This document shows positions 3,017 through 31,086 of a stretch of 32,000 bases of DNA, in pieces; position 1 is the first letter of the stretch, and each line of letters begins with the position of its first letter. The DNA is taken from contig NC_010814.1 of assembly GCF_000020385.1 (NCBI RefSeq), positions 3,570,001-3,602,000 of the forward strand, in the 5' to 3' direction. This stretch comes from Trichlorobacter lovleyi SZ (GTDB lineage Bacteria; Desulfobacterota; Desulfuromonadia; Geobacterales; Pseudopelobacteraceae). A model generated the notes under the pieces. That model did no database searches and was not told the DNA's origin. It saw nothing but the letters and a program-made list of their open reading frames with translations. Position numbers and translations under genes: made by a program.

Positions 3017-3406
3017 TATTTCCTGTACCAGTTCTCTGGCATCCAGCAGTTCCGCCTTTCTATCAGGCGTCACGAGCCAGGTGCCATAGCTGTCCTGCTC
3101 AAGTCTGACCGGTGCCTCCAATACCACGCTGGAAACCTGCCCCACCTGAAGGGCCAGTCCCCCTAACCGCAGGTCCAGCACAACCAGCTTCTCCGGCGCC
3201 TGTTCCGGTTCCTCCCCGACATACCAGGCAAGGTCAACCACCGCTGCAACTACTCCGGCAGACCGGACAGCCCCCAGGCACCAGACCGGGGCACGGGGCA
3301 CCGGCGACAGAGGGCGCAACTCACTTACCTCGGACACCTGTTCAAGAGGCAGGGCATAGTTCTGGCTGCCGGCCTGCAGCACCAGAAAACGCCGGACCTC
3401 ACTCAT
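2996..3406 (-). CDS. cheW: Chemotaxis coupling protein CheW
   Basis: 136-aa single CheW domain: [21 protein letters not shown]...[25 protein letters not shown]. Its ATG overlaps the MCP stop (ATGA at 3403-3406), indicating translational coupling. Confidence 0.85.
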
Positions 3407-4695: not shown

Positions 4696-4705
4696 AATCA
4701 TCTCC

Positions 4706-5539: not shown

Positions 5540-5620
5540 GGCGCAGACAATAAAATTGGTGTAGAGTTTGATTGTTGTTGTACCATGCGGTACCTTTACC
5601 CGCAACTGGACTGAAAGATC

Positions 5621-6415
5621 ATGAGCCCCCAGGATACCGATACTGCCTTTGATGAACTCCGCCTGATACACCGTGCGCTGAACGGCAGTAAAGAAGAGCT
5701 GTTTCAGCTGCTGGAACGGCCATCTCCGGATATCCTGCGGGCAGCCTTGCGTAACCCGGCCCTGGACGAAGGGCACCTGCTGGCACTGCTGCGCCACACC
5801 GGCCTGCACCCGGATCTGTTTACCCTGCTGCACCAGCAGCACGAGCCACCTGCCGGTAACTATCAGGTACTTTTTGCACTGGCACAGCATGCCGAGGTGC
5901 CGGCCCATATTGTCAGTGCCCTGCTGCCCCGGCTCTACCTGTTTGACCTGCTGAAACTCTGTTGTCTGCCAAGCATCCCGCAGGACCAGAGGGTAGCAGC
6001 TGAGCGAGCCATTATTCAACGAATACCAACCCAGCCACTGGGCAACAAACTTACCCTGGCCCGCAGAGGCACCGCTGCCATTGTTGAGGCGTTGCTGAAA
6101 GAGGGCCAACCGCAGCTGGTGGCGGCCTGCCTGGACAACCCCCACCTGAAGGAGGGAGCTGTCCATCAGTTTCTTGCCTCTGCCGCCGCCACTGCCGAGA
6201 CAATCTCCCAGATCGCCCGCCACAACCGCTGGAAACATCGTCCGGAACTGCAGCAGGCCATCCTGAAAAATCCCCGTACACCGGCTATCTGGTTCACGCT
6301 GTTTTTACCACGGCTGCCCCGCTCTGTGGTCAAGAACCTGGCCCTTTCGCCACGCCTGGCCCACCACCAGAAGCTATTGGTTAGCGAAGCACTTGGAGGT
6401 AAAAAACAGACATGA
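5621..6415 (+). CDS. Hypothetical alpha-helical repeat protein (LRV/HEAT-like repeats)
   Basis: Recurrent helical repeat with an NP motif: ALRNPALDEGHLLALL, CLDNPHLKEGAVHQFL, ILKNPRTPAIWFTLFL. No signal peptide seen. Its stop overlaps the next start (ATGA at 6412-6415). Confidence 0.55.
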   Translation: MSPQDTDTAFDELRLIHRALNGSKEELFQLLERPSPDILRAALRNPALDEGHLLALLRHTGLHPDLFTLLHQQHEPPAGNYQVLFALAQHAEVPAHIVSALLPRLYLFDLLKLCCLPSIPQDQRVAAERAIIQRIPTQPLGNKLTLARRGTAAIVEALLKEGQPQLVAACLDNPHLKEGAVHQFLASAAATAETISQIARHNRWKHRPELQQAILKNPRTPAIWFTLFLPRLPRSVVKNLALSPRLAHHQKLLVSEALGGKKQT

Positions 6416-16360: not shown

Positions 16361-16738
16361 TTATTCCGCCTTGGTTCGCAATCCTGCGGCGATATTGAAG
16401 TCTATATCCACCACAATAGTCAGCTTGTCCTTGTCAGGATCAGCCATCACTTCAAAGAGCCGTTTATCAATAAAAAGACTTAGATTGAGAATGTCTTGCT
16501 TTAAGGCTGTTGGCAGCGGGTTTTCCGGATCGGAAAGTTCGGCCTGAAAGAAACTCCAGACCTTCTGGTTGAATTTAATCGCCTCAAGCAGCTTTTCATC
16601 ACGGTCTGGCGCAGCCCAGTTTTCCTGCACCTGCTTTAACATCAGACCGGCACGGGTCAGTACCGACGCCTCAAGCTCGCGACCTGAAAGGGTCTCTTTC
16701 TGCATACTGGTGTAGCTGTTAAGTGCTGTCTGGCTCAT
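16361..16738 (-). CDS. flaF: Flagellin-synthesis regulator FlaF family protein
   Basis: 125 aa. Layout matches my recollection of Caulobacter FlaF. Elements: N-terminal Y..(Q/K).....RELEA..L, then LLEAIKFNQKVWSFF, NPLPTALKQDILNLSLFI, and C-terminal IDFNIAAGL. SD GAAGGAG lies upstream. Confidence 0.7.
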   Translation of the reverse strand: MSQTALNSYTSMQKETLSGRELEASVLTRAGLMLKQVQENWAAPDRDEKLLEAIKFNQKVWSFFQAELSDPENPLPTALKQDILNLSLFIDKRLFEVMADPDKDKLTIVVDIDFNIAAGLRTKAE

Positions 16739-16805: not shown

Positions 16806-18020
16806 CTAAAACACTTCGCCTTTCCAGGCTTCATACTGATCAGCAGTCGGATCCATCGACTTACCGTTCGCATCTTTCCCCAAAAATTTAAAGACAAGGT
16901 GGCTGGGATCAAGAATGCCTCCTTCAGTTATAGGATCAAAAGTACCTCCGTTGGTATCTGCCTTTTGACGTAGCGTAAAGGTCAGGGTTGCCTGTCGGGT
17001 TGTCGGATCATAGGAGACACTTTTGGGAAGATAAGGCACCGAGGTATCCCGTGCGCTGTATAATCCATTGTTGTAGAGACCTGTGGTACCACCAGATGCC
17101 TTGCTGATCCGCCAGTTCAGCGGGTCCACCACTGAGCTGATATCCATTTCTGAATCAAAGGCAAATTTTACGGTAAAGTCTTTAGTTGCACTGGGCTCCA
17201 TAAACGCCGACGAAAGTGCCACCAGATTCACAGCCGACAAATCAAGCTTCAAAGAGCTCTTGGTACTGTTGTAGTAGGAAATCTTTGGCTGCTTGATCTC
17301 TGCAGCCAGCTCTTCAGCTGAGAGCAACGAATCTGACGTGGCAATTTCAGTCAGCGTATCAACAATTTCCTGGGCCTTGTCCTTTTCTCCAAGCCCTGCG
17401 TACGCCCTGCCGAGTTCAAGCAGAGCCGGCGAAAAATCTGCCTTGAGATCTGTGGCCTTTTGAAGTGCCTCAACTGCTTCGTCGTATTTTTCCTGTCCGT
17501 TCAGCGCCATTCCCAAGGCATAATAACCGTTGCCGTCCTTGGGCTCCAGCTTGATAACCTGCCGGAAATTGGCCTCGGCCGAAGTATAATCCCCATTTTG
17601 AGCCTGTAACTGACCCAGCATGTAATATGCCAAGGTGTTCTGATTATTCTGTTTAATGCCGTCCTTGAGAACCTTTTCAGCCTCGCTCTTCTGACCATTA
17701 TCAATATAGACACCAGCCAGAGTGGTGTAAACCGTATCCTGGGTCTTATCCACCTTCAGAGACATCTTGTAGGCATCAATCGCCTCTTTACGCTTACCCA
17801 GGCGGGCATAAGCATCGCCCTGATACGTATAAGCCTCGGTAAGATCGGGCTGCATGGCAGCGGCCTGCCTGAAAGCTGAGGCGGCCTCGCTGTACTTCTG
17901 GCTCTGCATCAGATTGATACCACTCGAAAGCAAGGTATTAGCGACATTTGTGCGAAGGTCTGCTGCAGAAGTCAGCGCAGAAAACATTTTCTGTACGTTA
18001 TCTGAAAAATCAAATGCCAT
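16806..18020 (-). CDS. TPR-repeat protein with C-terminal Ig-like/beta-sandwich domain, apparently co-transcribed with flaF
   Basis: About six TPR units span aa 30-235, for example YSEAASAFRQAAAMQPDLTEAYTYQGDAY and YDEAVEALQKATDLKADFSPALLELGRAY. The S/T/G-rich beta-type C-terminus contains DPLNWRISKASGGTTGLYN and SVSYDPTTRQATLTFTL. No signal peptide is present. Confidence 0.75.
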   Translation of the reverse strand: MAFDFSDNVQKMFSALTSAADLRTNVANTLLSSGINLMQSQKYSEAASAFRQAAAMQPDLTEAYTYQGDAYARLGKRKEAIDAYKMSLKVDKTQDTVYTTLAGVYIDNGQKSEAEKVLKDGIKQNNQNTLAYYMLGQLQAQNGDYTSAEANFRQVIKLEPKDGNGYYALGMALNGQEKYDEAVEALQKATDLKADFSPALLELGRAYAGLGEKDKAQEIVDTLTEIATSDSLLSAEELAAEIKQPKISYYNSTKSSLKLDLSAVNLVALSSAFMEPSATKDFTVKFAFDSEMDISSVVDPLNWRISKASGGTTGLYNNGLYSARDTSVPYLPKSVSYDPTTRQATLTFTLRQKADTNGGTFDPITEGGILDPSHLVFKFLGKDANGKSMDPTADQYEAWKGEVF

Positions 18021-18126
18021 GACTGCCGCCTCCTTCCTCGTATATTTTGCAACCCTACTTCTATTGCGTAATGGGAAACGTCTCGTGTATACTTCGTCTG
18101 TCCGAGCACAGCTACTCTACTTCTAC

Positions 18127-18154
18127 CTATCGGAGTATACCTCGATTTTCTTTA
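18127..18154 (-). promoter_or_regulatory. Sigma28 (FliA)-like promoter candidate for the TPR-flaF unit
   Basis: The minus strand reads TAAA (18151-18154), a 16-nt spacer, then TCCGATAG (18127-18134). The consensus is TAAA-N15-GCCGATAA, so the spacer is one nt longer and the -10 has two mismatches. It lies about 105 nt upstream of the ATG at 18020 and next to the plus-strand ATG at 18156. Confidence 0.3.
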
Positions 18155-18155
18155 C

Positions 18156-20774
18156 ATGAACAGTCCTGCACTTCACAATATTCTGGCCCAGGCCGAGCAG
18201 TTCCATACCGACGGTCGCCTTGAAGAGGCGGCCGACCTGTATCGACGTATTCTCACGATCAAGCCTGGGCTCTCCCGCACCGCCTACAACCTTGGTATAC
18301 TCCTGCTTGAGTTGCAGAATTATCACGGAGCCGGAGCTGCCTTTGAGCAGTGCCTTGCCATTGAACCACACCTGCTTGAGGCACGTCTGAACCATGCCTT
18401 TGCCCTGCAGGAACAGGGCAGAATCACTGACGCACTGACACGCTACCAAACAATAATCAGTACGACCCCCGACTGCATTGAAGCCCGCTTCAATCTGGCC
18501 TGCCTGCAACTCCTGCAAGGCAATCTGTCTGATGGTCTGAACGGTTATGAGCTGCGTTTTTCCACCAATGCTCCGGTTACGGCACGGCATGGCACCATGC
18601 CACTCTGGGACGGCAGCAGCAGACCTGGTCTGCGGCTTTTGATCCATGCCGAGCAGGGCTATGGCGACACCCTGCAGATGCTGCGTTATTTACCAATGCT
18701 GGCAAACGATGGCCTTGAAATCACGCTGGAAGTCCCTGCTCCGCTCTATCGACTCTGTTCACGGATTGACTCAATCCACTGTGTAGAGCGCGGCACCCCG
18801 TTACCGGAACTGGATTACCAACTGCCGATCATGAGCCTGCCGCGAGTTATGAAAGCGACTCTGTCCAGCATACCCGGCACAACCCCTTACCTGACGCCTG
18901 ATCCGGAACTGGTCAGTCAATGGCGGCACCGCCTGCCTGAAGCAGGCGGTCTGCGGGTCGGACTGGCCTGGGCCGGGCGGATGGACCTGCCGGTCAACCG
19001 CAAGCGCAGCTGTCCGCCGCCCCTGCTGCAACCACTTCTGGCAACCGATCGGGTCAGTTTCATCAGTCTGCAGGTTGCAGCACCGGAAGGTTTTCAGCTC
19101 AGCGATCCACGTCTGCTTGATTGCAGTGCCGATCTGACTGACTTCGACCAGACGGCAGCCCTGATTGCCACCCTTGATCTGGTCATCACCATTGACAGCG
19201 CTGTGGCGCATCTGGCCGGCGCCCTGGGTGTACCGACCTGGTTAATGCTGCCGACAGTGCCAGACTGGCGCTGGCTGCTTGAGCGCAATGACTCTCCCTG
19301 GTATCCGGAGATGCAGCTTTTCCGGCAACCGGCGCCGGGCGCCTGGGAAACGGTGATTTCAACGATAACTGAGCAGCTCTCCACTGCCTGCTCACCACGC
19401 ATCTGGTGCTATCACGACGGCCGGGATTTTCATAACAATCTGACAGCAACCCGCCCCACCCCGTTGAGCGACCGTTCTCAATGGCCCGCCCTGGGACTAC
19501 GTGAAGCCGATTCACCGGTTGCAGCTGACTGGCTGCTGTTCCCCTATTACCTTGAACATCTTGCCGAATACCACACCATTGAGGGGATGTGGCATTTCCT
19601 TGAACAGCTACCCTGGTTTAAAGAACGCCAGGAACATCATATCCTGTTCAGTGACCATGACTGTGAGGCACCCTATCACTCCAGCGCGCACTGGTTCAGG
19701 GCCAGTGTCCACCCCCGCCGCCATGATCCTGCTGTTTGCGTCATCCCCTATCAGGTTGCAGTACCGCCGGAGCAGCTCCACTTTGATCTGTCCCGCATCC
19801 GGCACCACGTCAGCTTTGCCGGCTTTCTGGGGCTGTTGCGGGAGCGTGCACCAATGCTGAACGGAGTAATTGCCGAACCGCGCCTGGTCCATATGTTTGA
19901 TCTGACCACCTCGTTCCATCTGCACCAGGCCACCGAAGTCCGGGAACAACGGCGTCAACGCTATCTTGAGATTTCCAGCGCATCCATCTGCATCCTCTGC
20001 CCACGGGGAGACGGCAGCTCTTCGATCCGTTTTTTTGAGGCCCTGGCGCTGGGCAGGATCGCGGTGGTACAGGAACCGGTTTTACTCCCCTTCAGTGACC
20101 GGATCGACTATACGCGTTTTGTGATCAGCATACCCCGGGACCGGCTGGATCAGGCCGGGACCATTATTTTCAACTGGCTTGCCGCCCTTGGTGACGAGGA
20201 ACTGCTCCAGCGCTGCCGGGAGGCACGCTTTGCCTGGGAACAACACCTTTCTCCCGCTGCACTGCCACGGGGAGTTGTCCGCCAGCTCAACCGGCAGATG
20301 CTTGCCCGCCCCTCCAAATGGCCGGAAGCGCTGCCCGGCCATGACCGTGATGGCTGGCAACAACAGATGAACCGGGCCGCCGTCCTGTTACTGAAAGGGA
20401 AACCGCTCGAAGCACGACAGCAGCTGGCTGCGGCCCTGCAGATCAACCCGCGTTCCGCCCTGCTGCAGGTCACCATGGGCGGTATTGAACAGGAGCTGGG
20501 TAACGACCGCTCTGCCGAGGCATATCTGCTGGACGCCATCCAGTATGACCATCGCTGTTATGATGCCTATCTGCTGTTGGCCGGCCTCCTGGCGCGAACC
20601 AACCGGCCGGTTGAGGCCGTGGGGCGTTTCTACCAGGCCAGTCTGATCCGCCCTGCCGAGCTGCTGCCCTACCAGCTGGCCCAGCCCCTGCTACTGCAGC
20701 TTGGTCGCCAGGATGAGGCCACCTACTGCCAGGAACAGATTACACTGCTGAGCGGTAGCGGGGCTGCAGCATGA
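18156..20774 (+). CDS. Multidomain protein: TPR - GT9-like (heptosyltransferase-fold) - exostosin/GT47-like - TPR
   Basis: Approximate domains:
- aa 1-125: TPR.
- aa 130-410: GT-B module with LLIHAEQGYGDTLQMLRY, IDSAVAHLAGALGVPTW, VPDWRW, PWYPEMQLFRQP.
- aa 455-705: exostosin-type block ICILCPRGDGSSSIRFFEALALGRIAVVQEPVLLPFSDRIDYTRFVISIP.
- aa 735-860: TPR.
The stop overlaps the next ATG (ATGA at 20771-20774). Confidence 0.75.
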   Translation: MNSPALHNILAQAEQFHTDGRLEEAADLYRRILTIKPGLSRTAYNLGILLLELQNYHGAGAAFEQCLAIEPHLLEARLNHAFALQEQGRITDALTRYQTIISTTPDCIEARFNLACLQLLQGNLSDGLNGYELRFSTNAPVTARHGTMPLWDGSSRPGLRLLIHAEQGYGDTLQMLRYLPMLANDGLEITLEVPAPLYRLCSRIDSIHCVERGTPLPELDYQLPIMSLPRVMKATLSSIPGTTPYLTPDPELVSQWRHRLPEAGGLRVGLAWAGRMDLPVNRKRSCPPPLLQPLLATDRVSFISLQVAAPEGFQLSDPRLLDCSADLTDFDQTAALIATLDLVITIDSAVAHLAGALGVPTWLMLPTVPDWRWLLERNDSPWYPEMQLFRQPAPGAWETVISTITEQLSTACSPRIWCYHDGRDFHNNLTATRPTPLSDRSQWPALGLREADSPVAADWLLFPYYLEHLAEYHTIEGMWHFLEQLPWFKERQEHHILFSDHDCEAPYHSSAHWFRASVHPRRHDPAVCVIPYQVAVPPEQLHFDLSRIRHHVSFAGFLGLLRERAPMLNGVIAEPRLVHMFDLTTSFHLHQATEVREQRRQRYLEISSASICILCPRGDGSSSIRFFEALALGRIAVVQEPVLLPFSDRIDYTRFVISIPRDRLDQAGTIIFNWLAALGDEELLQRCREARFAWEQHLSPAALPRGVVRQLNRQMLARPSKWPEALPGHDRDGWQQQMNRAAVLLLKGKPLEARQQLAAALQINPRSALLQVTMGGIEQELGNDRSAEAYLLDAIQYDHRCYDAYLLLAGLLARTNRPVEAVGRFYQASLIRPAELLPYQLAQPLLLQLGRQDEATYCQEQITLLSGSGAAA

Positions 20775-23700
20775 ACCGCCACCAGCGTCCTAAAGGTTCA
20801 GTCGCTGTCTGGTATCGTCTCGGCACCCGGCAACTCCGGCAGAATCGCCCGGATGACGCGGCTGCGAGCTTTCGTCAGGCGCTGGCACAGGATCCGATGC
20901 TGGCGGCAGCCTGGCACAACCTGGCCCACGCCTGTCAGCAGATGCGCCAGTATGATCACGCCCTGGTCAGCTACCGCCGGGCCTTGCAGTACTGTCCCAA
21001 TGATGCCTGCAGTCTCAACAACCTGGGCGTACTGCTCCGGGAGCTGGGACGCCTGGATGAATCACTGCAGGTTCTGGGACAGCTTGTCAGCCTCTACCCT
21101 GATGACGGCGACGGCCACTGGAACCTGGCGCTCTCCCTGTTGATGACCCGACGCTACCCTGAAGGCTGGCAGGAGTATGAATGGCGCTTCCGCCGGACTC
21201 TCCCGGTCCGGGTCCATGATCCCGGCAGCCCCCGCTGGCAGGGTGAAGCGTTGGAGGGGAAAACCATCCTGCTCTGCTGTGAACAGGCCTATGGCGACAG
21301 CATTCAATTTGTACGCTTTGCCGCCGGCCTTGCCGATTGGGGCGCCACGGTGCTGCTGCACTGTCCGGACCAGTCCCTGGCGCAGCTTCTTGCCGGTGCG
21401 CCGGGGGTCAGCCGGACCATGACCCCGGATGAACCGTTGCCGCCGCATGACTGCTGGTCTCCTCTGCTCAGCCTGCCGCTTTATCTGCAGACCAGTCAGG
21501 AAAGTATTCCGGCCTGCCCCTACCTGTTTGCCGGGAAAACCGCCAGCCAACCGGTACTATCCGGCACCGGCCTCAAGGTCGGTCTGGTCTGGTCCGGCCG
21601 CAGCACAGACCCGCAGCGGGCCTGCCCCGTGCAACTGCTGGCACCATTGGCGCGCTTTTCAAGGCAGGTCACGTTTTTTTCGCTCCAGCTGAACAGCACC
21701 CGCCATGACCTTGATCTGTTGCAGCACCTCTTGGGAATCATCGATCTGGCGCCGCACCTGAGCGATTTTCAGGCCACTGCAGGGATCATGCAGCAGCTTG
21801 ACCTGATCATCAGCATTGACAGTGCCCCGGCCCACCTGGCCGGTGCACTGGGACGGGAGACCTGGCTGCTGCTGCATCAGGCCCCTGACTGGCGCTGGGG
21901 CCTCCAGCACGCAGATTCAGACTGGTACCCCACCATGCGGCTCTTCCGCCAGCCGGCAGGTGAGTCGTGGCAACCGGTGATTGATCAAGTGGTCGAAGCC
22001 CTGGAGCAGCGGCTCAACAGCAGCGCCGCCAGCATTCCGGTTGCGGACACCGGCGACCTGCTGACACTGGGGGACCGCTTGCGTGAGCAGGAACAGTGGA
22101 GCGCAGCGCACCATCTCTACCGGCTGGCTGCCTGGCTGGCACCGAACAACTACCGTGCAGCGCTCTGTGCAGGCGGATGCCTGATGTTTCTCAATCGTCC
22201 TGACGAGGCAGCCACCTGGTTCCGGCAGGCCATTGCATTAAACCCGGAAGTGGCTGATGCCCATATCAATCTGGGCATGGCCTTGCTGAGCAGCGGCAAC
22301 CTGCAGGAAGGCTGGCGCGAGTTTGAATGGCGCAGCTGTGCCATCACCGCGCAGCTGCCCCCTATTCCCGCCCTGCCGGTCATACCGCCCAACAGCCGTC
22401 TTGACGGTACGACGGTCCTTATCCATGCCGAACAGGGATTGGGCGACCTGCTGCAGTTCGCCCGCTACCTGCCGCTGCTGGCAACAACCGGGGCGCAGAT
22501 TATCGTCAGTGTCCCGGCCGTGATGCAACGCCTGATAGCCGGTCTGACCGGCGTCAGCCGGGCCGTCTCCCATGGCGAACTGCTGCCTGAGGCTGACTAT
22601 CAGCTCCCGCTGCTTTCCCTGCCGGAATGTCTGTCAGAGCTGGTGCCCGCCATCCCTGTCCAGGTACCGTACCTGTTGCCTGATCCAGCCCTGCAAGCGG
22701 CATGGCAGTCACAGCTTGCCGACAACGGCGTACTCAAGGTCGGCCTGATCTGGCGCGGCAGCAATCTGGGGAAAAGCGGTTACAGCAGGGCTCTGACCAC
22801 AGAACTGCTGCGTCCCCTGACAGAGGTGGAACAGACCACCTGCTACAGCCTGCAACTTGGCGCCAGCAGCGAAGAGCTGTCCCAACTGCCCGGCATCATT
22901 GATCTGGCACCGCAGATTACTGATTTTGCCGATACGGCGGCCATCATGGTCAATCTTGATCTGGTGATCAGTGTCGATACCTCCACCGCCCACCTGGCCG
23001 GTGCCCTGGGCTGCCGCTGCTGGGTACCGCTCCTGTTTGCGCCTGACTGGCGCTGGTATCCGTTGCATGACCAAGGCAGCCGCTGGTATCCCTCCCTGAC
23101 CACTTTCCGCCAGCATATACCCGGCCGGTGGCAGCCGGTTATGGCTGAACTTGCCGCTGCCCTGCAGGGTGAGGCGTTATTGTACCAAGGGCACCAACTT
23201 GGCAGGACGGGCAGAAGGGAAGAAGCAATTGAAAAATTCCGGGCAGCGGCTGTACTCCCAGACAGAAACGGGCCCGCCTTTTTGAATCTCGGCATCTACC
23301 TGCGGGCCGATGGTAAGCTACTACAGGCAAAAGAGGCCTTACTGCAGGCGACCCAGGCAGATCCGGGCTACCCGGAGGCCTGGCAAAACCTGGGACTGAC
23401 CCATCAGGGACTGGGAGAACTGCCTGAGGCCTATACCTGCCTGAAACGGGCACTGACCCTCAGACCTGACTACAGCACTGCCCGCTGGAACCTGGGGCTA
23501 CTGCAACTATTGTTGGGGGAATACCGGCCTGGATTTGAAAATTTCGAAGCGCGTTTCACCAAACTTGGAGCCGTGGCCCGGCTGCACAACACCATCCCGG
23601 CCTGGGACGGCACTTCATATCCCGGCAAAACAATCCTGATTCATGCGGAACAGGGCTACGGTGACACTCTTCAGTTCGTACGCTTCATTCCGATGGTCAC

Positions 23701-24409
23701 TGAAAGGGTGGGGAAAGTGATCCTTGAGGTGCAGGATAACGCCTTGCGTGAACTCTGCCAAAGCGTACCAGGGGTTACAACAACCATTGTACGAGGTGAG
23801 ACGCTACCGGCAATTGACTGCCAGGCCCCGCTGCTATCGCTCCCCCGGCTGCTGAAAATCTCATTAGAGACGCTGCCGCACAAGATTCCGTACCTGACTG
23901 CCGATAAACAAAAAACAGGGTACTGGGAGAGCAGACTCCCCCATGATGGCCGACGCAGGATCGGCATCTGCTGGAAAGGACGGCCAACACCCGACCCGCA
24001 GCGCTCAATCCCGTTTGATGAGTTGCGACCTCTTTTTGAGCTGGCAGGAACCTGCTGGATCTCGCTGCAGGCGGAGCAGGACCAGACCGCTCGCCTCCCG
24101 GAGGTGATGATTGACCTTAGCAATGAGATTAACGATTTCTCCGATACCGCAGCGATTATGGGCTATCTGGACCTGGTGATCAGCATTGACTCGGCGGTAG
24201 CTCATCTGGCCGGTGCCCTGGGGGCACCCGGCATCGTGCTGCTCCCCTTTGCACCTGACTGGCGCTGGGCCCTGGATCAACCCCACAGCCCCTGGTATCC
24301 GGGATTGCAACTGTTCCGGCAACCGGCCCCGGGAGCATGGAAACCGGTAATTACGGCCCTGTGCAACGCCCTGACACAACCATCTCCTGCCGAGGCATCA
24401 CGTGGATAA
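20771..24409 (+). CDS. Protein with three tandem TPR + GT9-like glycosyltransferase modules (1212 aa)
   Basis: Motifs recur three times:
- EQAYGDSIQFVRF, EQGLGDLLQFARY and EQGYGDTLQFVRF at aa 171, 554, 960.
- IDSAPAHLAGALG, VDTSTAHLAGALG and IDSAVAHLAGALG at aa 349, 735, 1139.
- APDWRW at aa 371, 757, 1161.
- WYP....FRQ at aa 385, 772, 1175.
Each module is preceded by 3-4 TPR-like repeats. Confidence 0.8.
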   Translation: MNRHQRPKGSVAVWYRLGTRQLRQNRPDDAAASFRQALAQDPMLAAAWHNLAHACQQMRQYDHALVSYRRALQYCPNDACSLNNLGVLLRELGRLDESLQVLGQLVSLYPDDGDGHWNLALSLLMTRRYPEGWQEYEWRFRRTLPVRVHDPGSPRWQGEALEGKTILLCCEQAYGDSIQFVRFAAGLADWGATVLLHCPDQSLAQLLAGAPGVSRTMTPDEPLPPHDCWSPLLSLPLYLQTSQESIPACPYLFAGKTASQPVLSGTGLKVGLVWSGRSTDPQRACPVQLLAPLARFSRQVTFFSLQLNSTRHDLDLLQHLLGIIDLAPHLSDFQATAGIMQQLDLIISIDSAPAHLAGALGRETWLLLHQAPDWRWGLQHADSDWYPTMRLFRQPAGESWQPVIDQVVEALEQRLNSSAASIPVADTGDLLTLGDRLREQEQWSAAHHLYRLAAWLAPNNYRAALCAGGCLMFLNRPDEAATWFRQAIALNPEVADAHINLGMALLSSGNLQEGWREFEWRSCAITAQLPPIPALPVIPPNSRLDGTTVLIHAEQGLGDLLQFARYLPLLATTGAQIIVSVPAVMQRLIAGLTGVSRAVSHGELLPEADYQLPLLSLPECLSELVPAIPVQVPYLLPDPALQAAWQSQLADNGVLKVGLIWRGSNLGKSGYSRALTTELLRPLTEVEQTTCYSLQLGASSEELSQLPGIIDLAPQITDFADTAAIMVNLDLVISVDTSTAHLAGALGCRCWVPLLFAPDWRWYPLHDQGSRWYPSLTTFRQHIPGRWQPVMAELAAALQGEALLYQGHQLGRTGRREEAIEKFRAAAVLPDRNGPAFLNLGIYLRADGKLLQAKEALLQATQADPGYPEAWQNLGLTHQGLGELPEAYTCLKRALTLRPDYSTARWNLGLLQLLLGEYRPGFENFEARFTKLGAVARLHNTIPAWDGTSYPGKTILIHAEQGYGDTLQFVRFIPMVTERVGKVILEVQDNALRELCQSVPGVTTTIVRGETLPAIDCQAPLLSLPRLLKISLETLPHKIPYLTADKQKTGYWESRLPHDGRRRIGICWKGRPTPDPQRSIPFDELRPLFELAGTCWISLQAEQDQTARLPEVMIDLSNEINDFSDTAAIMGYLDLVISIDSAVAHLAGALGAPGIVLLPFAPDWRWALDQPHSPWYPGLQLFRQPAPGAWKPVITALCNALTQPSPAEASRG

Positions 24410-25259
24410 GCATCCTGACTGGGAAACGTACTGGAGTACGACGGAATTCAGTCCGCTCACCGGTACAAATTTTTTTACTCAGATATTCAATGTCTTTGTC
24501 CCGGAAGTACAGGGGCAGTTGACAGCAATGGAAATCGGCTGTTTTCCCGGACGTTTCATTGAGTACATCGGTCAAAAAGGTTATGTCATCAGCGGCATTG
24601 ATACCTGTCCAAAGGTGCTTGGCCTCAACCAGCTCTTTCGCGAGAGGGGATTGCGGGTAGGTGCTTTTTCCAACGTCGATCTCGATGATTTTTTCGGCCG
24701 CTTCGGCCTGGTTCTTTCGGTTGGTTTTATTGAGCATTTTGCCAATTGGCCCAGGATCATCATGAAGCATATCGAATGTACCAAACCCGGTGGAAGAATC
24801 ATTATCAATTGCCCGAACTTTGCGACCCCACTGCAGAGAGCGATGCATCAGACGGTAGACAAGGGGAATAGTGATCACCATGTCCTTTCCGCAATGTATC
24901 CGGCATTGTGGGGGGCATTTCTGAGACTGGTCGGGATGGACCTGCTGTATTGTGATTATATCGGTCCGTTTCAATTCTGGACCGAAACATGCCTGCATCC
25001 CGACAGCAATGAGTACAAACTGCAGCAAGCATTTCAGTCTGCCGGCAACTGGTTGCATAAAATCAAGGGAGAATTTGAGGCAAAGGAGTCAGGCTATTGC
25101 CTGGCAGTTGCAGACAGGCCCCGGGATTGGGTAGCCGACAATGACAGGATTGAAGCGCTCTGTTCTGAATTTCAGACTCTTGCAACGCTGCTTGACCTGA
25201 AAGACCAGCTGCTTGCCGATCAGCTGCGACACGCGTTTAAAACGGCAATACCGATCTAG
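24402..25259 (+). CDS. Class I SAM-dependent methyltransferase
   Basis: Motif I-like AMEIGCFPGRFIEYIGQKGYVISGID, later GGRIIINCPNF. GTG start at 24402 has GAGG 6 nt upstream and overlaps the previous gene by 8 nt. The 235-aa antisense ORF was rejected. Confidence 0.7.
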   Translation: MDKHPDWETYWSTTEFSPLTGTNFFTQIFNVFVPEVQGQLTAMEIGCFPGRFIEYIGQKGYVISGIDTCPKVLGLNQLFRERGLRVGAFSNVDLDDFFGRFGLVLSVGFIEHFANWPRIIMKHIECTKPGGRIIINCPNFATPLQRAMHQTVDKGNSDHHVLSAMYPALWGAFLRLVGMDLLYCDYIGPFQFWTETCLHPDSNEYKLQQAFQSAGNWLHKIKGEFEAKESGYCLAVADRPRDWVADNDRIEALCSEFQTLATLLDLKDQLLADQLRHAFKTAIPI

Positions 25260-25324
25260 GCCAAGCCCCACAGATACAGGACAGAGTACCACTCTCATTT
25301 TTCTTCACTCATGACAGGGGCCAT

Positions 25325-26617
25325 ATGAAGGTAGTTCACATAGCCTTATCAAATGACGGTGGAGCCGGTATTGCCGCCTACCGGTTGCATACAGCCTTGA
25401 GAAAAGCAGGGGTGGCGTCGCTCATGCTGGTGCTGTACAGCAAAAATGATGATCCTACGGTCAACATCATCAACACCACGACCCGGCCCTGCCTGACGAC
25501 CGGCCCCGGCATTTCCCCCCATTTCTATACCCATGAACAGCACACCCGTTGCCTGCTGGAACAGCACCCCCAGCGCAACCAGAAACGGGATATGTTTACC
25601 GGTGCGACCTCCGAAGTTGTACTGGAAGATATTGCAGCAATTCACGACGCCGACATCATCAACCTGCACTGGGTCGCAGGGGTGGTGGACTATTCCCGCC
25701 TCAGCCATATCTTCAAGGGCAAACAAACGGTACTGACGCTCCATGCCATGAACGACTTTACCGGTGGCTGCCACAACGCCTATGACTGCCGCAACTATAC
25801 GACCGAGTGTTGTCATTGCCCACAATTAGGTCCACACCCGTTTGACCATGCCAGACATATTTTTTATCAAAAACTCTATGGGATGCAGGAGCTTGAGATA
25901 ACAGCGGTCAGCCCCAGCAGATGGCTGGCCGGCTGCGCCGCCCAGAGCAGAATCCTGTCCGGCAGACGCGTACTGTGCATCCCCAACGGCATTCCGAGCG
26001 AGACCTTCAGACCACTGGAAAGTTCTGCTGCCCGTGACTATTTCGGCATTGCCCCTGATCGTTTCATCATCCTGTTTGGCGCCTTTGATGCTACCAATGA
26101 ACGCAAGGGAGGGGCATTACTTGCTGCTGCACTCGGGCAACTGCCTGTCACTGTCCTGGATAGAATCACCCTGGTTGGATTCGGCGCCTCATCAGAGACA
26201 CTGGTAACGTCTTTCCCCTGCGACGTCAAAGGCTTGGGACCAGTCTGCAATGAAGACAACCTGGCGCTGATCTATTCCATGGCAGACCTGTTTGCCCTGC
26301 CATCCATGGCGGATAATCTACCCAACTCCATTCTGGAATCACTGGCCTGCGGCACGCCGGTACTGGCATTCAGGGTTGGCGGCATACCGGAGATTGTCGA
26401 ACACAGGCGAAACGGGTATCTTGCCACACCGTTCAATACCGGTGAGCTGGCTGCAGGGATCGTCTGGTGCATGGAAAACCACAAACAACTCGCAGGCGAA
26501 CCGTGTACCGCCACCATCCGATATGGCTATACTGACCGTATCCAGGCCCTGCGCTATATCAGTCTCTACCAGAGCCTGCTTGACGGTTTGTCAACCAGGC
26601 AGAGCAGAATCCGATGA
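25325..26617 (+). CDS. Glycosyltransferase family 4 (GT-B, group 1)
   Basis: N-terminus MKVVHIALSNDGGAGIAAYRL. C-domain ERKGGALL and LFALPSMADNLPNSILESLACGTPVLAFRVGGIPEIVEHRRNGYLA. Confidence 0.85.
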   Translation: MKVVHIALSNDGGAGIAAYRLHTALRKAGVASLMLVLYSKNDDPTVNIINTTTRPCLTTGPGISPHFYTHEQHTRCLLEQHPQRNQKRDMFTGATSEVVLEDIAAIHDADIINLHWVAGVVDYSRLSHIFKGKQTVLTLHAMNDFTGGCHNAYDCRNYTTECCHCPQLGPHPFDHARHIFYQKLYGMQELEITAVSPSRWLAGCAAQSRILSGRRVLCIPNGIPSETFRPLESSAARDYFGIAPDRFIILFGAFDATNERKGGALLAAALGQLPVTVLDRITLVGFGASSETLVTSFPCDVKGLGPVCNEDNLALIYSMADLFALPSMADNLPNSILESLACGTPVLAFRVGGIPEIVEHRRNGYLATPFNTGELAAGIVWCMENHKQLAGEPCTATIRYGYTDRIQALRYISLYQSLLDGLSTRQSRIR

Positions 26618-27249
26618 CCAAACCGGCCTTTGCACAGACAAAGCTGTTGCAGTTCCTGGAAAAGATTGCAGTAGAGGTCTATCCTGAAGCACCGTCAGCA
26701 CTCCATACCCAGATTACCGCCAAGGCGATAGAGCATCTGTTTGCAGCCTACACAGTCGCCGGGCAGGCCCTGGTGCTTGATGTCGGTTGCGGGCAGGGGG
26801 TGGCTTTACAGCATTTTGTCGAACGGGGCTGTCGACCGGTGGGGATCACCCTCAATACAACCGATCTGGAGGAGTGCCGCAGGCAAGGATACACCGTGGC
26901 GCAGATGGACCAGTCCTTTCTTGATTTTGAAGACAACACCTTTGATCTTGTCTGGGCCCGGCATATTGTGGAGCACAGCATTTTTCCGTACTACACGCTG
27001 ACGGAGTTTGCCCGGATACTCAAGCCGGGCGGCCTGCTCTACCTTGAAGTACCCGGGGCGGAGACCTCCTGCAAACATGAACTGAACCGCAATCACTACA
27101 GTATCCTCAGCCACACCATGTGGTGCTCGCTGCTGGAGCGAAGCGGGTTCACTATCGCCGAAGAGCAAACCTATTTCCTGAAAAATGAGCAGGGACCTGA
27201 TGAATACTGGGCCTTTTTCGGGGTAACATCTGGAGGCACTCATGCCTGA
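26614..27249 (+). CDS. Class I SAM-dependent methyltransferase (Methyltransf_11-like)
   Basis: VLDVGCGQGVALQHFVERGCRPVGITL (motif I), FDLVWARHIVEHS and LKPGGLLYLEVP. ATGA overlap with the upstream gene. Confidence 0.8.
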   Translation: MTKPAFAQTKLLQFLEKIAVEVYPEAPSALHTQITAKAIEHLFAAYTVAGQALVLDVGCGQGVALQHFVERGCRPVGITLNTTDLEECRRQGYTVAQMDQSFLDFEDNTFDLVWARHIVEHSIFPYYTLTEFARILKPGGLLYLEVPGAETSCKHELNRNHYSILSHTMWCSLLERSGFTIAEEQTYFLKNEQGPDEYWAFFGVTSGGTHA

Positions 27250-28027
27250 AACGCATATCAGCACGACAGTAGCACCGTCTCTGTCAACAGACTCCTTTGT
27301 CTCCATCGGCTCACAACAGCCGATCTCAGCCATAGAAGAGGCGATGCTGGCAGCAGTCGCCGCCTCTCACGGACTGGTCACGGTCTCCGAGGCCCTGTCG
27401 TTACACCGTCTCTGTCAGATGCTCCCTGCCGGGGCGCGCATCCTTGAAATCGGTTCCTATCTTGGCGCCTCCACCACCGCCATAGGCCATGCTATCCTGG
27501 GAAGAGAGATCGATCTGTACTGCCTTGATTGTTGGCACGACTATGTCGCCCATGGTTTCATAGACCATCCCTGGGCCAAGTCGGCACATTCCGGCAACGA
27601 GGTCCTGCTCAAATTTCTCGAAACCACGGCGTTTATACACAGTCAGCTCCGGATACTGAAAGGTACCACCGAGCAGTTCCGGACCCTGCTACCGGCCTCG
27701 TTTTTTGATCTGATCTTTATTGATGCCGGCCATGATTATGATAGCGTCCTGAATGACCTGCTGATCAGCATGCGAGCGCTGGCCCCCGGCGGATTGCTGC
27801 TGGGGCATGACTACCACAGTGATGGCCATGGCGTTGTTGCCGCGGTCAACCAGGTGATCTATGAATCCCGCAACATCACGGTTAAAGGGATTATCCCGGG
27901 CACCAGCATCTGGTACGCCGTGATCAACAACCCGCTCCAGGAGTTGGTCAACTTGAACGCATCAGGTCTGCCACGACCTACTGATCGCACCTCCGTACCG
28001 GGTTCCCCGGCAAGCCGCTCGCTATGA
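27242..28027 (+). CDS. Class I SAM-dependent methyltransferase (Methyltransf_24 / family-3 O-MT-like)
   Basis: ILEIGSYLGASTTAIGHAI, DLIFIDAGHDYDSVLNDL and LAPGGLLLGHDY. Overlaps the upstream gene by 8 nt. Confidence 0.75.
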   Translation: MPETHISTTVAPSLSTDSFVSIGSQQPISAIEEAMLAAVAASHGLVTVSEALSLHRLCQMLPAGARILEIGSYLGASTTAIGHAILGREIDLYCLDCWHDYVAHGFIDHPWAKSAHSGNEVLLKFLETTAFIHSQLRILKGTTEQFRTLLPASFFDLIFIDAGHDYDSVLNDLLISMRALAPGGLLLGHDYHSDGHGVVAAVNQVIYESRNITVKGIIPGTSIWYAVINNPLQELVNLNASGLPRPTDRTSVPGSPASRSL

Positions 28028-29643
28028 AGATACTCTTAGTCATCCCCCTGTCAAACTATCCTCAAATGCACCCTGCGTTTTTGTCCAACACCGACTTCCC
28101 GGTCGGTTTTGCCTACATCGCTGCTGCTCTGAAACAGGCAGGGCATAAGGTCTTTGGCCTGAATCCCAACAATGACACCCGCTACGAATCTGCCCAAGAG
28201 CTCCTCAAGGCACGGCTGATCCAGTCTTTGATCGAAACCAACCCCCATATGATCGGCCTGGGCGGGCTTTCCACAGACATCCATTTTATTGCTGACGCCA
28301 TTCAGATCATCCGGTCGGTACGGCCGCACATCCCGATTGTGTGCGGCGGCGGGATCATCACTAATGATGCAGAGTACGTGTTCAAGCGGCTGCGTCCCGA
28401 CTTCTGTATTATTGGTGATGCTGAGCGTGCACTCGTACAACTTGTTGAGATGCTTGAGCAGGGCAGTGCCCTTTTCGATACGATTCCGAACCTCGGCTAC
28501 TGGCACGAGGGGCACGCCCGATTCAGCCCCCGTCTACGCAACGACGAGCCCGTCGATTCCTATCCCTTCCCCGATTACGAGCCCTTTGACATCAACAGCA
28601 TGCTCGGCGAGCACGCGCTGGTCACCCGCTATCAATACCGCTACACCCGCTCTCATCCGGTTCCAATGACCCTGGTGGCGGCTCGCGGTTGTCCGTTCAG
28701 ATGTTCGTTTTGCGTCAACAATGATGACAAGCGCTACCGTTTCCGGAGTATCGGAAACATTATGGACGAAATCAGGGTGCTGTATGAAAAATATCACTTT
28801 AATATCCTGATCATCCTGGATGAGCTGTTTGCAGTACACAGGGATCGGCTGCAGCAGTTTGCAACCGCCCTGCTTGAGGGGAGAGCACGCTATGGCTGGG
28901 ATTTTGACTGGAGCTTCCAGACCCACGCCAGTGCCAATATTGATCAGGCAACGCTCCAGCTTGCCAAGCAGGCCGGCTGTTTCTTTTTCAGCTATGGCAT
29001 TGAAAGCGCCAGCCCGACAGTCCTTGCCAGCATGAACAAGCGGACTCAGCCGGAACAGATTGAAGCAGCCCTGAAGCTCGCGGAGCAGGTACAGGTAGGG
29101 TTCGGAGGAAACTTTATCTTTGGTGACCCTGCCGAAACCTTCCAGACCGCCTTGGAATCGCTGGAATTTTACAAGAAGCACTGTCTTTATGCGCATGTCA
29201 ATGTCGGGTCGGTGCATCCCTATCCCGGCAGCAGGCTTTTTGACTACTGTCTCGAGCAGGGAATCATAGCAGACAAGTCTAAGTACTATGACAACATAGA
29301 CCAGGTTTCATATAACATGACCCGCTTGCCCCAGCAGGAGTGGGTACGGCTGATGACCGAGATTATGCAGTTCACCAGCCAATGCGGCGTTCCGGTGGTT
29401 GAAACACAAGCCGCACGCCAAGACCCCGGTGCAACGGAGCGTGAACGCCACGGCAACGGCAACAGATCACCGTGGGAACTTATATTCAACTGCCCGCACT
29501 GTAGCCACGGCATCTATACCCGCATGTTGCTGGTCAATGAAGAGGTACTGCAGGCCTATGCCAGCTTTGTAACCGGTTGCCCTGTATGTCACAAACGCTT
29601 TATCGTCAAGGCAGCGGCTAGTGAGCGGCCTGACCTGTACTAA
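28024..29643 (+). CDS. B12-binding-domain radical SAM enzyme (class B, probable methyltransferase) with C-terminal Cys4 zinc-ribbon-like tail
   Basis: N-terminal Rossmann/B12-like region MKILLVIP...IGLGGLST...IPIVCGGGIIT. Radical SAM cluster motif ARGCPFRCSFCVN (CxxxCxxC). C-terminus CPHCSHG...(36 aa)...CPVCHKRF. ATGA overlap with the upstream gene. Confidence 0.85.
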   Translation: MKILLVIPLSNYPQMHPAFLSNTDFPVGFAYIAAALKQAGHKVFGLNPNNDTRYESAQELLKARLIQSLIETNPHMIGLGGLSTDIHFIADAIQIIRSVRPHIPIVCGGGIITNDAEYVFKRLRPDFCIIGDAERALVQLVEMLEQGSALFDTIPNLGYWHEGHARFSPRLRNDEPVDSYPFPDYEPFDINSMLGEHALVTRYQYRYTRSHPVPMTLVAARGCPFRCSFCVNNDDKRYRFRSIGNIMDEIRVLYEKYHFNILIILDELFAVHRDRLQQFATALLEGRARYGWDFDWSFQTHASANIDQATLQLAKQAGCFFFSYGIESASPTVLASMNKRTQPEQIEAALKLAEQVQVGFGGNFIFGDPAETFQTALESLEFYKKHCLYAHVNVGSVHPYPGSRLFDYCLEQGIIADKSKYYDNIDQVSYNMTRLPQQEWVRLMTEIMQFTSQCGVPVVETQAARQDPGATERERHGNGNRSPWELIFNCPHCSHGIYTRMLLVNEEVLQAYASFVTGCPVCHKRFIVKAAASERPDLY

Positions 29644-29709
29644 CCAAGTACAGGCAGAACGCAATATGCTGACGACGCAGACACAACGTTTTTGAAAGGC
29701 AGATTACCG

Positions 29710-31086
29710 ATGGTAAGCCAGGAAAAGATAATTTCGTATGTAGAGAGCCTTATCTATTACATTGCCAAACCCGCCATGAGCGAACAGATTGCAGCATCTT
29801 TCGAGATCGACAGCCTGCCGCAAGCCGATACAGGAGCACAACTGCTAATCCTGGGGGCACTGCTGACAACAGGCCGGTTTGACGAGTTTTCCCAGCTGGC
29901 CGGCAAGCTTGATTTCAGCGCACACACCGCAGAAGAAAGGTCACAGCTTGCCCACTGCATCTTTACGACCTTCTCCGAAACCCTGCTGGCCAACTACGCC
30001 ACCTCATCCCGACATGCGGCGGCAATTCTGGAGCTCCTGACCGCAATCAGCCCGGAGGCCATACTGGCACACAGATCCGGCTGCGAATCACCAGCAGGGC
30101 ATGCACTGATCGAACTTGACTACGCCCGACAGATCAGCCCCTCCGTAAGCGGTGCCGTTTTTTCCAGGGAAAACTCCTTTGGACCAGGCTCACGAAAGAG
30201 CGAGTTTGGATATCGCATCCTGTCATCACTGGCCTCCCAGGGGTGGAACGTTGCGCTCTTGCCCTTAAAAGAGCTTTTCAGTTATACCACTCCCTGTCGG
30301 CAGGATTTTGTGCTGGTGGATGTGGGGCTGTTCTGGAAGCTGCCGCCGCTTGAGCAGCTCCATGAGCTGCTTGCGTACCTGAAACGTCATTTTCGCAAGA
30401 TCATCATCTTTGAACCGGACCCGTGGACCGGGTTCTATGATGAACTGTTGCGGTCAATTGCTGATCGTGTAGATTATATCTGGGGGTTCACCCCGGATTG
30501 GGAATTGACACAAGATCCGTGCTACAGGGGTAAAAGCATCATGTTCCCCAATGTCGGCGGATTCGAACAGCTGGCGCCGCCGCACCGGCATGAGCTTGAC
30601 TGGAACAGTTGCAGCTTCAACTTTACCGGCTCGGTACAGGGCTACAACCTGAACAGGGTCTACTGGATCCTTGAGGCGATCCGACGTAACCTGCCACTCG
30701 AGGTCCAGATTACGAATCCAGGTGTTGATGACGGCCTGGACTGTGAAAGTTCACTGAAGCTGTACATCCGGAAGCTGCTCTCCTCCCATGCCTCACTTAA
30801 CCTGGCAACGCGCAAGGATGGCTCACGGATGCTGACCGGCAGGGCGGTTGAGGTCATCAGCCTGAACCGGTTGCTGATTCAGGAATGGTGCCCCGCACTG
30901 CGACGGTATTATGTTGAAGGAGAGCACTTTCTGGAGTTCAAAGAGATTGAGGGACTTGCCACCAGCATCCACTTCCTGGAATCACACCCCAGGGTTGCAC
31001 AGACAATCTGCTCCCAGGGACATCAGTTCTATCTGGAACGGTATTCGTGCCGGAAAATGGTAGAACATATCCAGACCCTGCTCTGA
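29710..31086 (+). CDS. Divergent CgeB-like / Glyco_trans_1_2-type glycosyltransferase
   Basis: The C-terminal third resembles the CgeB family: FNFTGSVQGYNLNRV and LTGRAVEVISLNRLLIQEW...YVEGEHFLEFKEIEGL...QGHQFYLERYS. The N-terminal 200 aa are not recognised. Start set at the ATG at 29710; the listed start at 29692 is TTG. Confidence 0.5.
   Translation: MVSQEKIISYVESLIYYIAKPAMSEQIAASFEIDSLPQADTGAQLLILGALLTTGRFDEFSQLAGKLDFSAHTAEERSQLAHCIFTTFSETLLANYATSSRHAAAILELLTAISPEAILAHRSGCESPAGHALIELDYARQISPSVSGAVFSRENSFGPGSRKSEFGYRILSSLASQGWNVALLPLKELFSYTTPCRQDFVLVDVGLFWKLPPLEQLHELLAYLKRHFRKIIIFEPDPWTGFYDELLRSIADRVDYIWGFTPDWELTQDPCYRGKSIMFPNVGGFEQLAPPHRHELDWNSCSFNFTGSVQGYNLNRVYWILEAIRRNLPLEVQITNPGVDDGLDCESSLKLYIRKLLSSHASLNLATRKDGSRMLTGRAVEVISLNRLLIQEWCPALRRYYVEGEHFLEFKEIEGLATSIHFLESHPRVAQTICSQGHQFYLERYSCRKMVEHIQTLL

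Follow-up and report, generated by a model that had tools for sequence, protein, structure and literature searches.

The DNA considered here, a window of 32,000 nucleotides from the genome of Trichlorobacter lovleyi SZ (contig NC_010814.1, positions 3,570,001 to 3,602,000; coordinates below are those of the window), contains an open reading frame (ORF) encoding a 1212-residue protein (20771..24409, forward strand, ATG start) that is made up of three tandem modules, each with tetratricopeptide repeats (TPRs) followed by a domain with the predicted fold of glycosyltransferase (GT) family 9 (GT9). A fourth such module is present, together with additional domains, in the 872-residue product of the ORF immediately upstream (18156..20774, forward strand). 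The two proteins are proposed to form a soluble, cytoplasmic, multi-catalytic flagellin glycosyltransferase, the modules of which carry out non-redundant steps, a reading to which we assign a probability of about 60%. It draws on the intactness of all four modules, the structural kinship of their catalytic domains, the retention of each module position in related genomes, and the location of the genes in an island between flaF and flagellin genes. The 1212-residue protein is identical to WP_012471384.1/ACD97060.1 of Trichlorobacter (formerly Geobacter) lovleyi, the sole annotation of which is 'tetratricopeptide repeat protein'.

Four modules in two overlapping genes

Module 1 (residues 1-415; 20771..22015, forward strand) has TPRs at residues ~10-130 and a GT9-like domain at residues 139-415. 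Module 2 (residues 416-802; 22016..23176, forward strand) has a shorter TPR region and a GT9-like domain at residues 518-802, and module 3 (residues 803-1212; 23177..24406, forward strand) has four TPR-like helix pairs and a GT9-like domain at residues 928-1205. In the 872-residue protein, a module at residues 1-412 is followed by an Exostosin/GT47-like domain (residues 452-670; E 1e-11) and by C-terminal TPRs (residues ~740-830). An initial reading of the DNA, made from the sequence only, had described the longer ORF as a triplicated unit of three to four TPR-like repeats and a GT-B-like domain, with a further copy in the gene directly upstream. This description is borne out by the ORF itself and by alignment of its thirds with the N-terminal ~410 residues of the 872-residue ORF (36-41% identity, E 1e-59 to 1e-86); the repeat number is four helix pairs in the model of module 3 and about three in module 2, which is shorter by ~35 N-terminal residues.

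The anchor motifs picked out in the sequence-only reading all recur: EQxxGDxxQFxR at residues 171, 554 and 960, D[ST]xxAHLAGALG with its Asp at residues 350, 736 and 1140, APDWRW at residues 371, 757 and 1161, and WYP...FRQ at residues 385, 772 and 1175. The DS that had been given for all three modules stands for modules 1 and 3, but module 2 has DTSTAHLAGALG, i.e. DT, which is the majority state in the family. The key residues are thus Asp176 (GD motif) and Asp350 (IDS motif) in module 1, Asp559 (GD motif) and Asp736 (IDT motif) in module 2, Asp965 (GD motif) and Asp1140 (IDS motif) in module 3, and Asp171 and Asp347 in the module of the 872-residue protein.

The four modules have 78 invariant columns in common, and amino acid identity between modules is 35-41%. 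At the nucleotide level they are strongly diverged, with 46-50% identity overall, 34-43% identity at the third codon position and a longest exact shared run of at most 17 nucleotides; because of this divergence, the duplication is old, as had been supposed, and both an assembly artefact and a recent duplication are ruled out.

The stop codon of the 872-residue ORF and the start codon of the 1212-residue ORF overlap by 4 nucleotides (20771-20774), which suggests that the two genes are translationally coupled. The G+C content over these genes (62-63%; window 20001-23000) is raised compared with that of the flanking kilobases (49-58%), which could reflect amino acid composition or a foreign origin.

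Fold and family of the catalytic domain

Searches of PDB sequences having given no match for the catalytic half of the modules, its fold was tested by structure prediction. With the whole-module profile, the same sequence searches matched only TPR proteins and the TPR regions of OGT. The AlphaFold (AF2) model of module 3, built with 77 homologues, has a mean predicted local distance difference test score (pLDDT) of 94.3 and a predicted template-modelling (TM) score of 0.92, and shows eight helices at the N terminus, which form four TPR-like pairs, and then two Rossmann-like halves; a separate model of the catalytic half has a pLDDT of 93.2. When the latter model was compared with the PDB using Foldseek, 29 of the 30 top matches were chains of WaaF, a Veillonella GT9 protein, WaaC and TibC. 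The best was WaaF (1psw; E 1.2e-7, TM-score 0.60), with further matches to the Veillonella GT9 protein (3tov), WaaC (2gt1, 2h1h and 6dfe) and TibC (4rap and 4rb4), those to TibC having E values from 7e-6 to 5e-4. The remaining match (rank 12), regarded as unrelated, is to a spinach protein, one of the subunits of the NDH-PSI-LHCI supercomplex (PDB 9grx chain 1; TM-score 0.60, E 4e-5). As an observation in its own right, this chain fits the catalytic-half model as well as WaaF does, which suggests that a GT9-fold protein is present within this photosynthetic complex.

Whole-module Foldseek searches of the PDB place OGT and SPINDLY first (E ~3e-10), with TM-scores of only 0.3-0.4 and root-mean-square deviations above 12 Å. 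These matches are gone once the TPRs are removed, GT41 structures being absent from the top 30 matches of the catalytic half, and the 1212-residue protein has no Pfam match to the GT41 catalytic domain (PF13844); a GT41 identity was therefore rejected.

In Pfam, the whole 1212-residue protein matches many TPR families and Glyco_transf_9 (PF01075; 52.5 bits, cutoff 22). Taken singly, the catalytic halves of the four modules score 23.8, 19.2, 20.2 and 26.9 bits against PF01075, covering only profile positions ~139-208 of 247, i.e. the D-[ST]-x-x-A-H-L region. Similarly, hhalign comparisons with the single WaaC and WaaF sequences of Escherichia coli give probabilities of 55-60% over 33-40 columns, with the C-terminal motif alone aligned, and put the Asp of the ID[ST] motif (residues 350, 736 and 1140; 347 in the 872-residue protein) on WaaC Asp261, a residue involved in donor-sugar binding. 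At the N-terminal end of the domain, a 'strand, x4-5, G-D, helix' motif (TILIHAEQGYGDTLQF) is built like the N termini of WaaC (RVLIVKTSSMGD13VLHTL) and WaaF; because of this likeness, Asp176, Asp559 and Asp965, and Asp171 in the 872-residue protein, would correspond in position to the catalytic base of GT9 enzymes, which in WaaC is Asp13. Both Asp positions are invariant in an alignment of 89 family sequences, so that the loss of catalytic or donor-binding residues, which the sequence-only reading had raised as a possible objection, is seen in none of the modules. The same alignment has no Cys column that is invariant or at least 90% conserved. On its modelled fold and its motifs, the repeated domain is best classed as a GT9 member that is marginal to the Pfam model, in agreement with the initial proposal of a GT9-like domain. 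An assignment as an LPS-core (lipopolysaccharide-core) heptosyltransferase was rejected on architecture and gene context.

The scores of modules 2 and 3, just under the PF01075 gathering threshold, could be taken to mean that a single module is catalytically relevant and that the rest are flagellin-binding or regulatory pseudo-enzymes. This is very improbable, given that the modules are conserved separately, each as a positional orthologue (see below), and that all four keep the full set of 21 residues that are invariant in the 89-sequence family alignment, including both candidate Asp residues and the His of the AHL motif. Because of the retention of these 21 residues, none of the modules looks degenerate, a conclusion already reached in the sequence-only reading.

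Conservation of module position and moving gene boundaries

In Citrifermentans bemidjiense, a 1450-residue three-module protein and a 1005-residue two-module protein are encoded between motAB/GT4 and the contiguous flagellin, FlbT and FlaF genes, with TPR-GT41 proteins beside FlaF; at the same genomic place, a metagenomic relative has five modules in one 2502-residue protein. The closest relative of the window (locus L010) has the layout flaF, a TPR protein of ~400 residues, and proteins of 869 and 1213 residues. At locus L011, all four modules are in a single 1729-residue protein from which the GT47 part is absent, and at locus L020 the equivalents of the 872- and 1212-residue proteins, GT47 domain included, are fused into one protein of 2156 residues; the adjacency of flaF recurs at all three loci. 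Across genomes, the modules are thus distributed over genes as 1+3, 4, 3+2 or 5, or with everything fused.

In a tree of the catalytic domains, delimited by hidden Markov models, the modules cluster by position and not by genome. Because of this grouping, each module position is an old paralogue that has been maintained separately, with only the gene boundaries moving.

A separate arrangement is observed in a 2232-residue protein with six matched stretches (L005:10001-16699), in which four full modules are followed by a C-terminal half-match (residues 1831-1980) and then an N-terminal half-match (residues 2091-2228); the trailing half-matches may derive from a fifth module that has been permuted or has decayed.

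A glycosylation island bounded by flagellar genes

The gene for the 1212-residue protein lies inside a glycosylation island of ~38 kb that is bounded by flaF and two flagellin genes. The flaF gene at the edge of the island (16361..16738, reverse strand) encodes a 125-residue flagellin secretion chaperone/flagellar biosynthesis regulator (NF009435, 141 bits against a cutoff of 91), and a tblastn search with C. bemidjiense FlaF gave a match at window positions 16735..16373 with 70% identity. It is two genes upstream of the 1212-residue gene, the gene order being flaF, then the genes for a 404-residue protein, the 872-residue protein and the 1212-residue protein. In Caulobacter, FlaF has been described as a flagellin secretion chaperone (PMC7591256). 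No flbT or flagellin gene is present within the window; in T. lovleyi, these are at the far end of the island. In the published locus tags, Glov_3370 and Glov_3371 are the flagellins and Glov_3373 is FlbT, and, since Glov_3294 is WP_012471324.1, accession arithmetic places the gene for WP_012471384.1 at about Glov_3354. Flagellar genes are expressed in T. lovleyi (PMC11972089). A published DNRA data set has Glov_3370-3373, though not the gene for the 1212-residue protein, in its list of regulated genes.

The 404-residue protein (16806..18020, reverse strand) has N-terminal TPRs and a Ser/Thr-rich C-terminal domain of ~170 residues, for which there is no Pfam or NCBIfam match. Its gene is kept between flaF and the glycosyltransferase genes at L010, L011 and L020 and in Pelotalea chapellei (L006:1993-3213, 34% identity), and the protein may serve as a substrate or an adaptor, or be functionally analogous to FlbT.

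Downstream of the 1212-residue gene, and on the same strand, the island continues with an S-adenosylmethionine (SAM) methyltransferase gene (24402..25259), followed by genes for a GT4-type glycosyltransferase (Glycos_transf_1; 25325..26617), a second SAM methyltransferase (Methyltransf_11; 26614..27249), a Methyltransf_24 O-methyltransferase-like protein (27242..28027), a B12-binding radical SAM enzyme resembling C- or P-methyltransferases (28024..29643) and a Glyco_trans_1_2 (CgeB-like) glycosyltransferase (29692..31086). It runs ~20 kb past the window, up to the two flagellin genes. In a T. lovleyi strain (L016), the island further holds genes for a short-chain dehydrogenase/reductase-type dehydratase/epimerase, a GT8-like protein, another GT4 enzyme and two TPR-GT41 proteins, and ends with two tandem genes for 275-residue flagellins, which are Ser/Thr-rich (30-34% in the central region). 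The same island layout is present in a relative (L017) with a protein 82% identical to the 1212-residue protein.

The two TPR-GT41 (OGT-like) proteins, of 596 and 667 residues, are encoded directly beside the flagellins (L016:18015-21805, reverse strand), as are such proteins at L003:20085-24353 and L012:20292-25441. The 596-residue protein has the length reported for FlmG, and the 667-residue protein weakly matches a protein N-glucosyltransferase model; these proteins may be the closer analogues of FlmG. A single island therefore carries two classes of TPR-guided GT-B enzymes, i.e. TPR-GT9-like and TPR-GT41.

The island is also rich in methyltransferases (24402-31086; L016:1-18000), having several SAM methyltransferases, Methyltransf_24 proteins and one or two B12-radical-SAM enzymes, and this richness suggests that its glycan is heavily methylated. 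The CgeB-like glycosyltransferase-methyltransferase fusions that it encodes are of 818-1049 residues, and in one strain the 818-residue fusion is joined to a B12-radical-SAM domain (1288 residues). With respect to sugar donors, no heptose-pathway gene was seen, and a heptose donor was rejected, the island epimerase being dTDP-glucose-dehydratase/LegB-like (below cutoffs) and only 25% identical to RfaD; no pathway to pseudaminic acid (Pse) or legionaminic acid (Leg) was identified here.

Approximately 10 kb upstream of the island, a gene for a 510-residue CheR (4706-6238, reverse strand), in which the methyltransferase domains begin only from residue ~266 and the first ~250 residues have no assigned domain, adjoins a gene for a methyl-accepting chemotaxis protein (3403-4701, reverse strand).

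Occurrence of the architecture

A profile search with the catalytic half found 45,015 representatives (of clusters at 50% identity) at E≤1e-3 and 25,464 at E≤1e-30. Domain copies were counted in the best-scoring 150 of the 45,015, of which two have six matched stretches per protein, nine have five, 26 have four, 105 have three and eight have two; at least 142 representatives therefore have three to six domain copies in one polypeptide. The single-module form (~400-470 residues), named 'tetratricopeptide repeat-containing glycosyltransferase family protein' by NCBI, is very abundant. The rarity of multi-module proteins that was implied in the sequence-only reading thus does not hold. Its remark that the arrangement might prove both common and already characterised applies in the first part; as to the second, no characterised member of the domain family was found, and the literature searched yielded no description of TPR + GT9 flagellin enzymes or of tandem forms, including with respect to flagellin glycosylation in Geobacter and to the domain content of Fgt1, Fgt2 and FlmQ. 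As far as could be found, the multi-copy layout is thus common in databases yet apparently unstudied.

Proposed mechanism and alternatives

In the proposed mechanism, the TPR array of each module would dock a protein partner, which may be flagellin, a flagellin-chaperone complex or a neighbouring module, and the GT9-fold domain would move one sugar from a nucleotide-sugar donor. By analogy with WaaC, the Asp of the 'EQGxGD' loop (Asp13 in WaaC) may act as general base and that of the 'ID(S/T)xxAHL' motif (Asp261 in WaaC) may bind the donor sugar. The modules could add different sugars of an oligosaccharide and/or serve different Ser/Thr sites on the two 275-residue flagellins, with the other enzymes of the island (GT4, GT47, GT8-like, CgeB-like glycosyltransferase-methyltransferase fusions, B12-radical-SAM enzymes, SAM methyltransferases and the two TPR-GT41 proteins) working alongside them. 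The modules are proposed to be non-redundant, with a distinct step for each, because a separate positional orthologue of each is found in related genomes, and flagellin is the acceptor that we infer to be the most likely because the gene lies in an island between flaF and the flagellin genes. The role in protein glycosylation envisaged in the sequence-only reading is itself strengthened by the neighbouring flaF and by the flagellin genes at the island's end.

A more specific version, which at present is rather doubtful, is that glycans are assembled on a colinear, protein-templated line of modules, each of which adds one defined sugar at a given flagellin stage or site. Were this correct, the arrangement of modules in the polypeptide(s) would specify the order of the sugars in the glycan or that of the sites, and the splitting or fusing of genes (1+3, 4, 3+2, 5, or the 872- and 1212-residue proteins fused) would leave the product unchanged. 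The system would then be a glycosylation analogue of the modular logic of non-ribosomal peptide and polyketide synthases, and cyanobacteria and other lineages would have turned the TPR-GT9 cassette to non-flagellar proteins.

Several considerations weigh against assigning the modules to flagellin glycosylation. Glycosylation of T. lovleyi flagellin and contact of the modules with it are both putative, and the flagellin genes are ~15-17 genes from the 1212-residue gene, i.e. not adjacent. The divergent intergenic region at 18021-18155 has neither a sigma-54 nor a sigma-28 consensus. The sequence likeness to GT9 is limited to one motif region (19-27 bits per module, around the cutoff of 22), and the catalytic-half profile matched no PDB sequence even at E≤10. 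The two TPR-GT41 proteins next to the flagellins could carry out protein priming, with the GT9-like modules then extending glycans or acting elsewhere. Multi-module proteins also occur in non-flagellar contexts, in an Oscillatoriales cyanobacterium (3114 residues), which is non-flagellate, and in a Bordetella sp. (2020 residues), and Paraburkholderia and Azospirillum have single-module relatives that also lie outside flagellar contexts; because of these relatives, the domain family is not intrinsically flagellin-specific.

With respect to promoter patterns, the number of sigma-54 matches is at chance level. A loose sigma-28-like pattern (TAAAG-N14-GCCGATA, at most 3 mismatches) occurs 32 times in the window, compared with 14.9 +/- 4.1 in shuffled sequences, and 0 times in the 18021-18155 region; the excess is probably a codon-composition effect (GCC GAT).

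If the TPR-GT41 enzymes attach the first sugar, the GT9-like modules might only elongate the flagellin glycan, with their TPRs serving as a multi-enzyme scaffold rather than binding flagellin. The position of the 596- and 667-residue proteins beside the T. lovleyi flagellins, and of their counterparts beside C. bemidjiense FlaF, is in favour of this proposal, as are the weak resemblance of the 667-residue protein to a protein N-glucosyltransferase, the presence of a TPR-containing capsule multienzyme (8qoy) among the whole-module structural matches, and the variable fusion and fission of modules, which fits parts of a single complex. However, all four modules keep a TPR array of their own, which is costly for a mere scaffold, TPRs are the flagellin-binding element in FlmG and Maf-1, and TibC is an example of a GT9 fold that modifies Ser/Thr residues of a protein directly. 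An elongation-only role, the main alternative, is on balance considered unlikely.

It may also be that the acceptor is not flagellin, but the neighbouring 404-residue protein, another secreted protein, or an exopolysaccharide or LPS-like molecule, and that the flagellar neighbourhood is a lineage-specific coincidence. The relatives without flagellar genes noted above are consistent with this, including those in Azospirillum, which are encoded beside a giant calcium-binding protein, as is the fact that the founding members of GT9 act on LPS. The 404-residue protein, furthermore, is always adjacent in loci of the T. lovleyi type, and its Ser/Thr-rich domain is of no known family. By contrast, flaF and/or a flagellin gene is within 10 kb at six of the nine multi-module loci examined (the window, L003, L010, L011, L012 and L020), flaF and the flagellin genes flank the T. 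lovleyi island, no transmembrane segment is predicted in the 1212-residue protein, and neither a membrane anchor nor lipid-linked machinery such as a flippase or a WaaL-like ligase was seen in the window or its downstream extension. A non-flagellin acceptor in T. lovleyi is thus improbable; the flagellar link holds for the Geobacterales clade, and the architecture is not intrinsically flagellar.

In Azospirillum oryzae, 729- and 997-residue relatives with single or double modules are encoded on plasmid NZ_CP054615.1, adjoining the gene for the giant calcium-binding protein (>2,600 residues) and two GT2 genes, and Azospirillum chromids have 7-15 matching places each. These observations suggest that non-flagellar protein substrates exist for the family.

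Comparison with known systems

In its proposed mode of action, the flagellin glycosyltransferase resembles FlmG, a cytoplasmic TPR + GT-B flagellin O-glycosyltransferase, in which flagellin is bound by the TPR region and the choice of donor is determined by the GT-B domain (PMC7591256; 10.1101/2022.03.25.485807). As judged from its published description, FlmG (Caulobacter crescentus CCNA_01524; Brevundimonas) likewise has N-terminal TPRs and a C-terminal domain of ~280 residues, classed there simply as GT-B, is soluble, and works in a system with short (~275-residue) flagellins, FlaF and FlbT. Genomic association with flagellin, flaF and flbT, and a TPR + GT-B layout in a soluble protein, are features of the modules that are in line with the FlmG class. 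By contrast, there is one module per protein in FlmG, compared with three (plus one) per operon here and up to five or six in relatives, and FlmG transfers Pse or Leg, for which, as noted, a pathway was not identified here. The FlmG class has been described as narrow and confined to Caulobacterales.

WaaC and WaaF (PDB 2gt1 and 1psw) are GT9 enzymes that come closest in structure to the catalytic half, the modules of which score around the cutoff of Pfam PF01075, and have in common with it the strand-GD-helix motif (Asp13 in WaaC) and the D-[ST]-x-x-x-H-L motif (Asp261 in WaaC). They differ in being single-domain enzymes without TPRs, which use ADP-heptose as donor and lipid A-Kdo as acceptor; the sequence likeness extends over only ~35-65 residues, the TM-scores are 0.5-0.6, and the context of the modules is flagellar.

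The bacterial autotransporter heptosyltransferases (BAHT) TibC and AAH (PDB 4rap and 4rb4) have a GT9-type fold and O-glycosylate a protein in the cytoplasm. TibC, however, is a single-domain, iron-binding dodecamer without TPRs, whereas the modules have no conserved Cys able to form an iron site, and its substrate is an autotransporter rather than a flagellin. The likeness to OGT and SPINDLY (GT41) is in the TPR-then-GT-B layout only.

A model for several transfers per flagellin is provided by Fgt1 and Fgt2 of Pseudomonas syringae and FgtA of Pseudomonas aeruginosa, which are large glycosyltransferases encoded upstream of fliC. These, by contrast, are separate proteins, and to our knowledge they are not tandem TPR-GT9 modules. 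Fgt1 puts the proximal rhamnose on Ser and, with Fgt2 and VioT, builds a trisaccharide at six Ser residues (PMC3927599).

Significance

The mechanism of flagellin O-glycosylation is understood for few enzymes, i.e. Maf, FlmG and some glycosyltransferases of Pseudomonas and Burkholderia, and the way in which specificity for acceptor and donor is encoded is still a question for the field. The T. lovleyi locus is a cleanly modular system, with four to five homologous TPR + GT9-fold units, each of them orthologous to its counterparts across Geobacterales and naturally split or fused, and the occurrence of this modularity beside two small flagellins and FlaF makes the proposal of one module for one step directly testable. 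If correct, the assignment would mean that cytoplasmic protein glycosylation guided by TPRs also makes use of a GT9-fold catalytic domain, and that it reaches far outside Caulobacterales. The architecture being common and in line with established ideas, this would be an extension rather than a surprise. The function of one member would, however, carry over to many genomes, including those of non-flagellate organisms, in a family of ~45,000 representatives annotated as 'tetratricopeptide repeat protein'.

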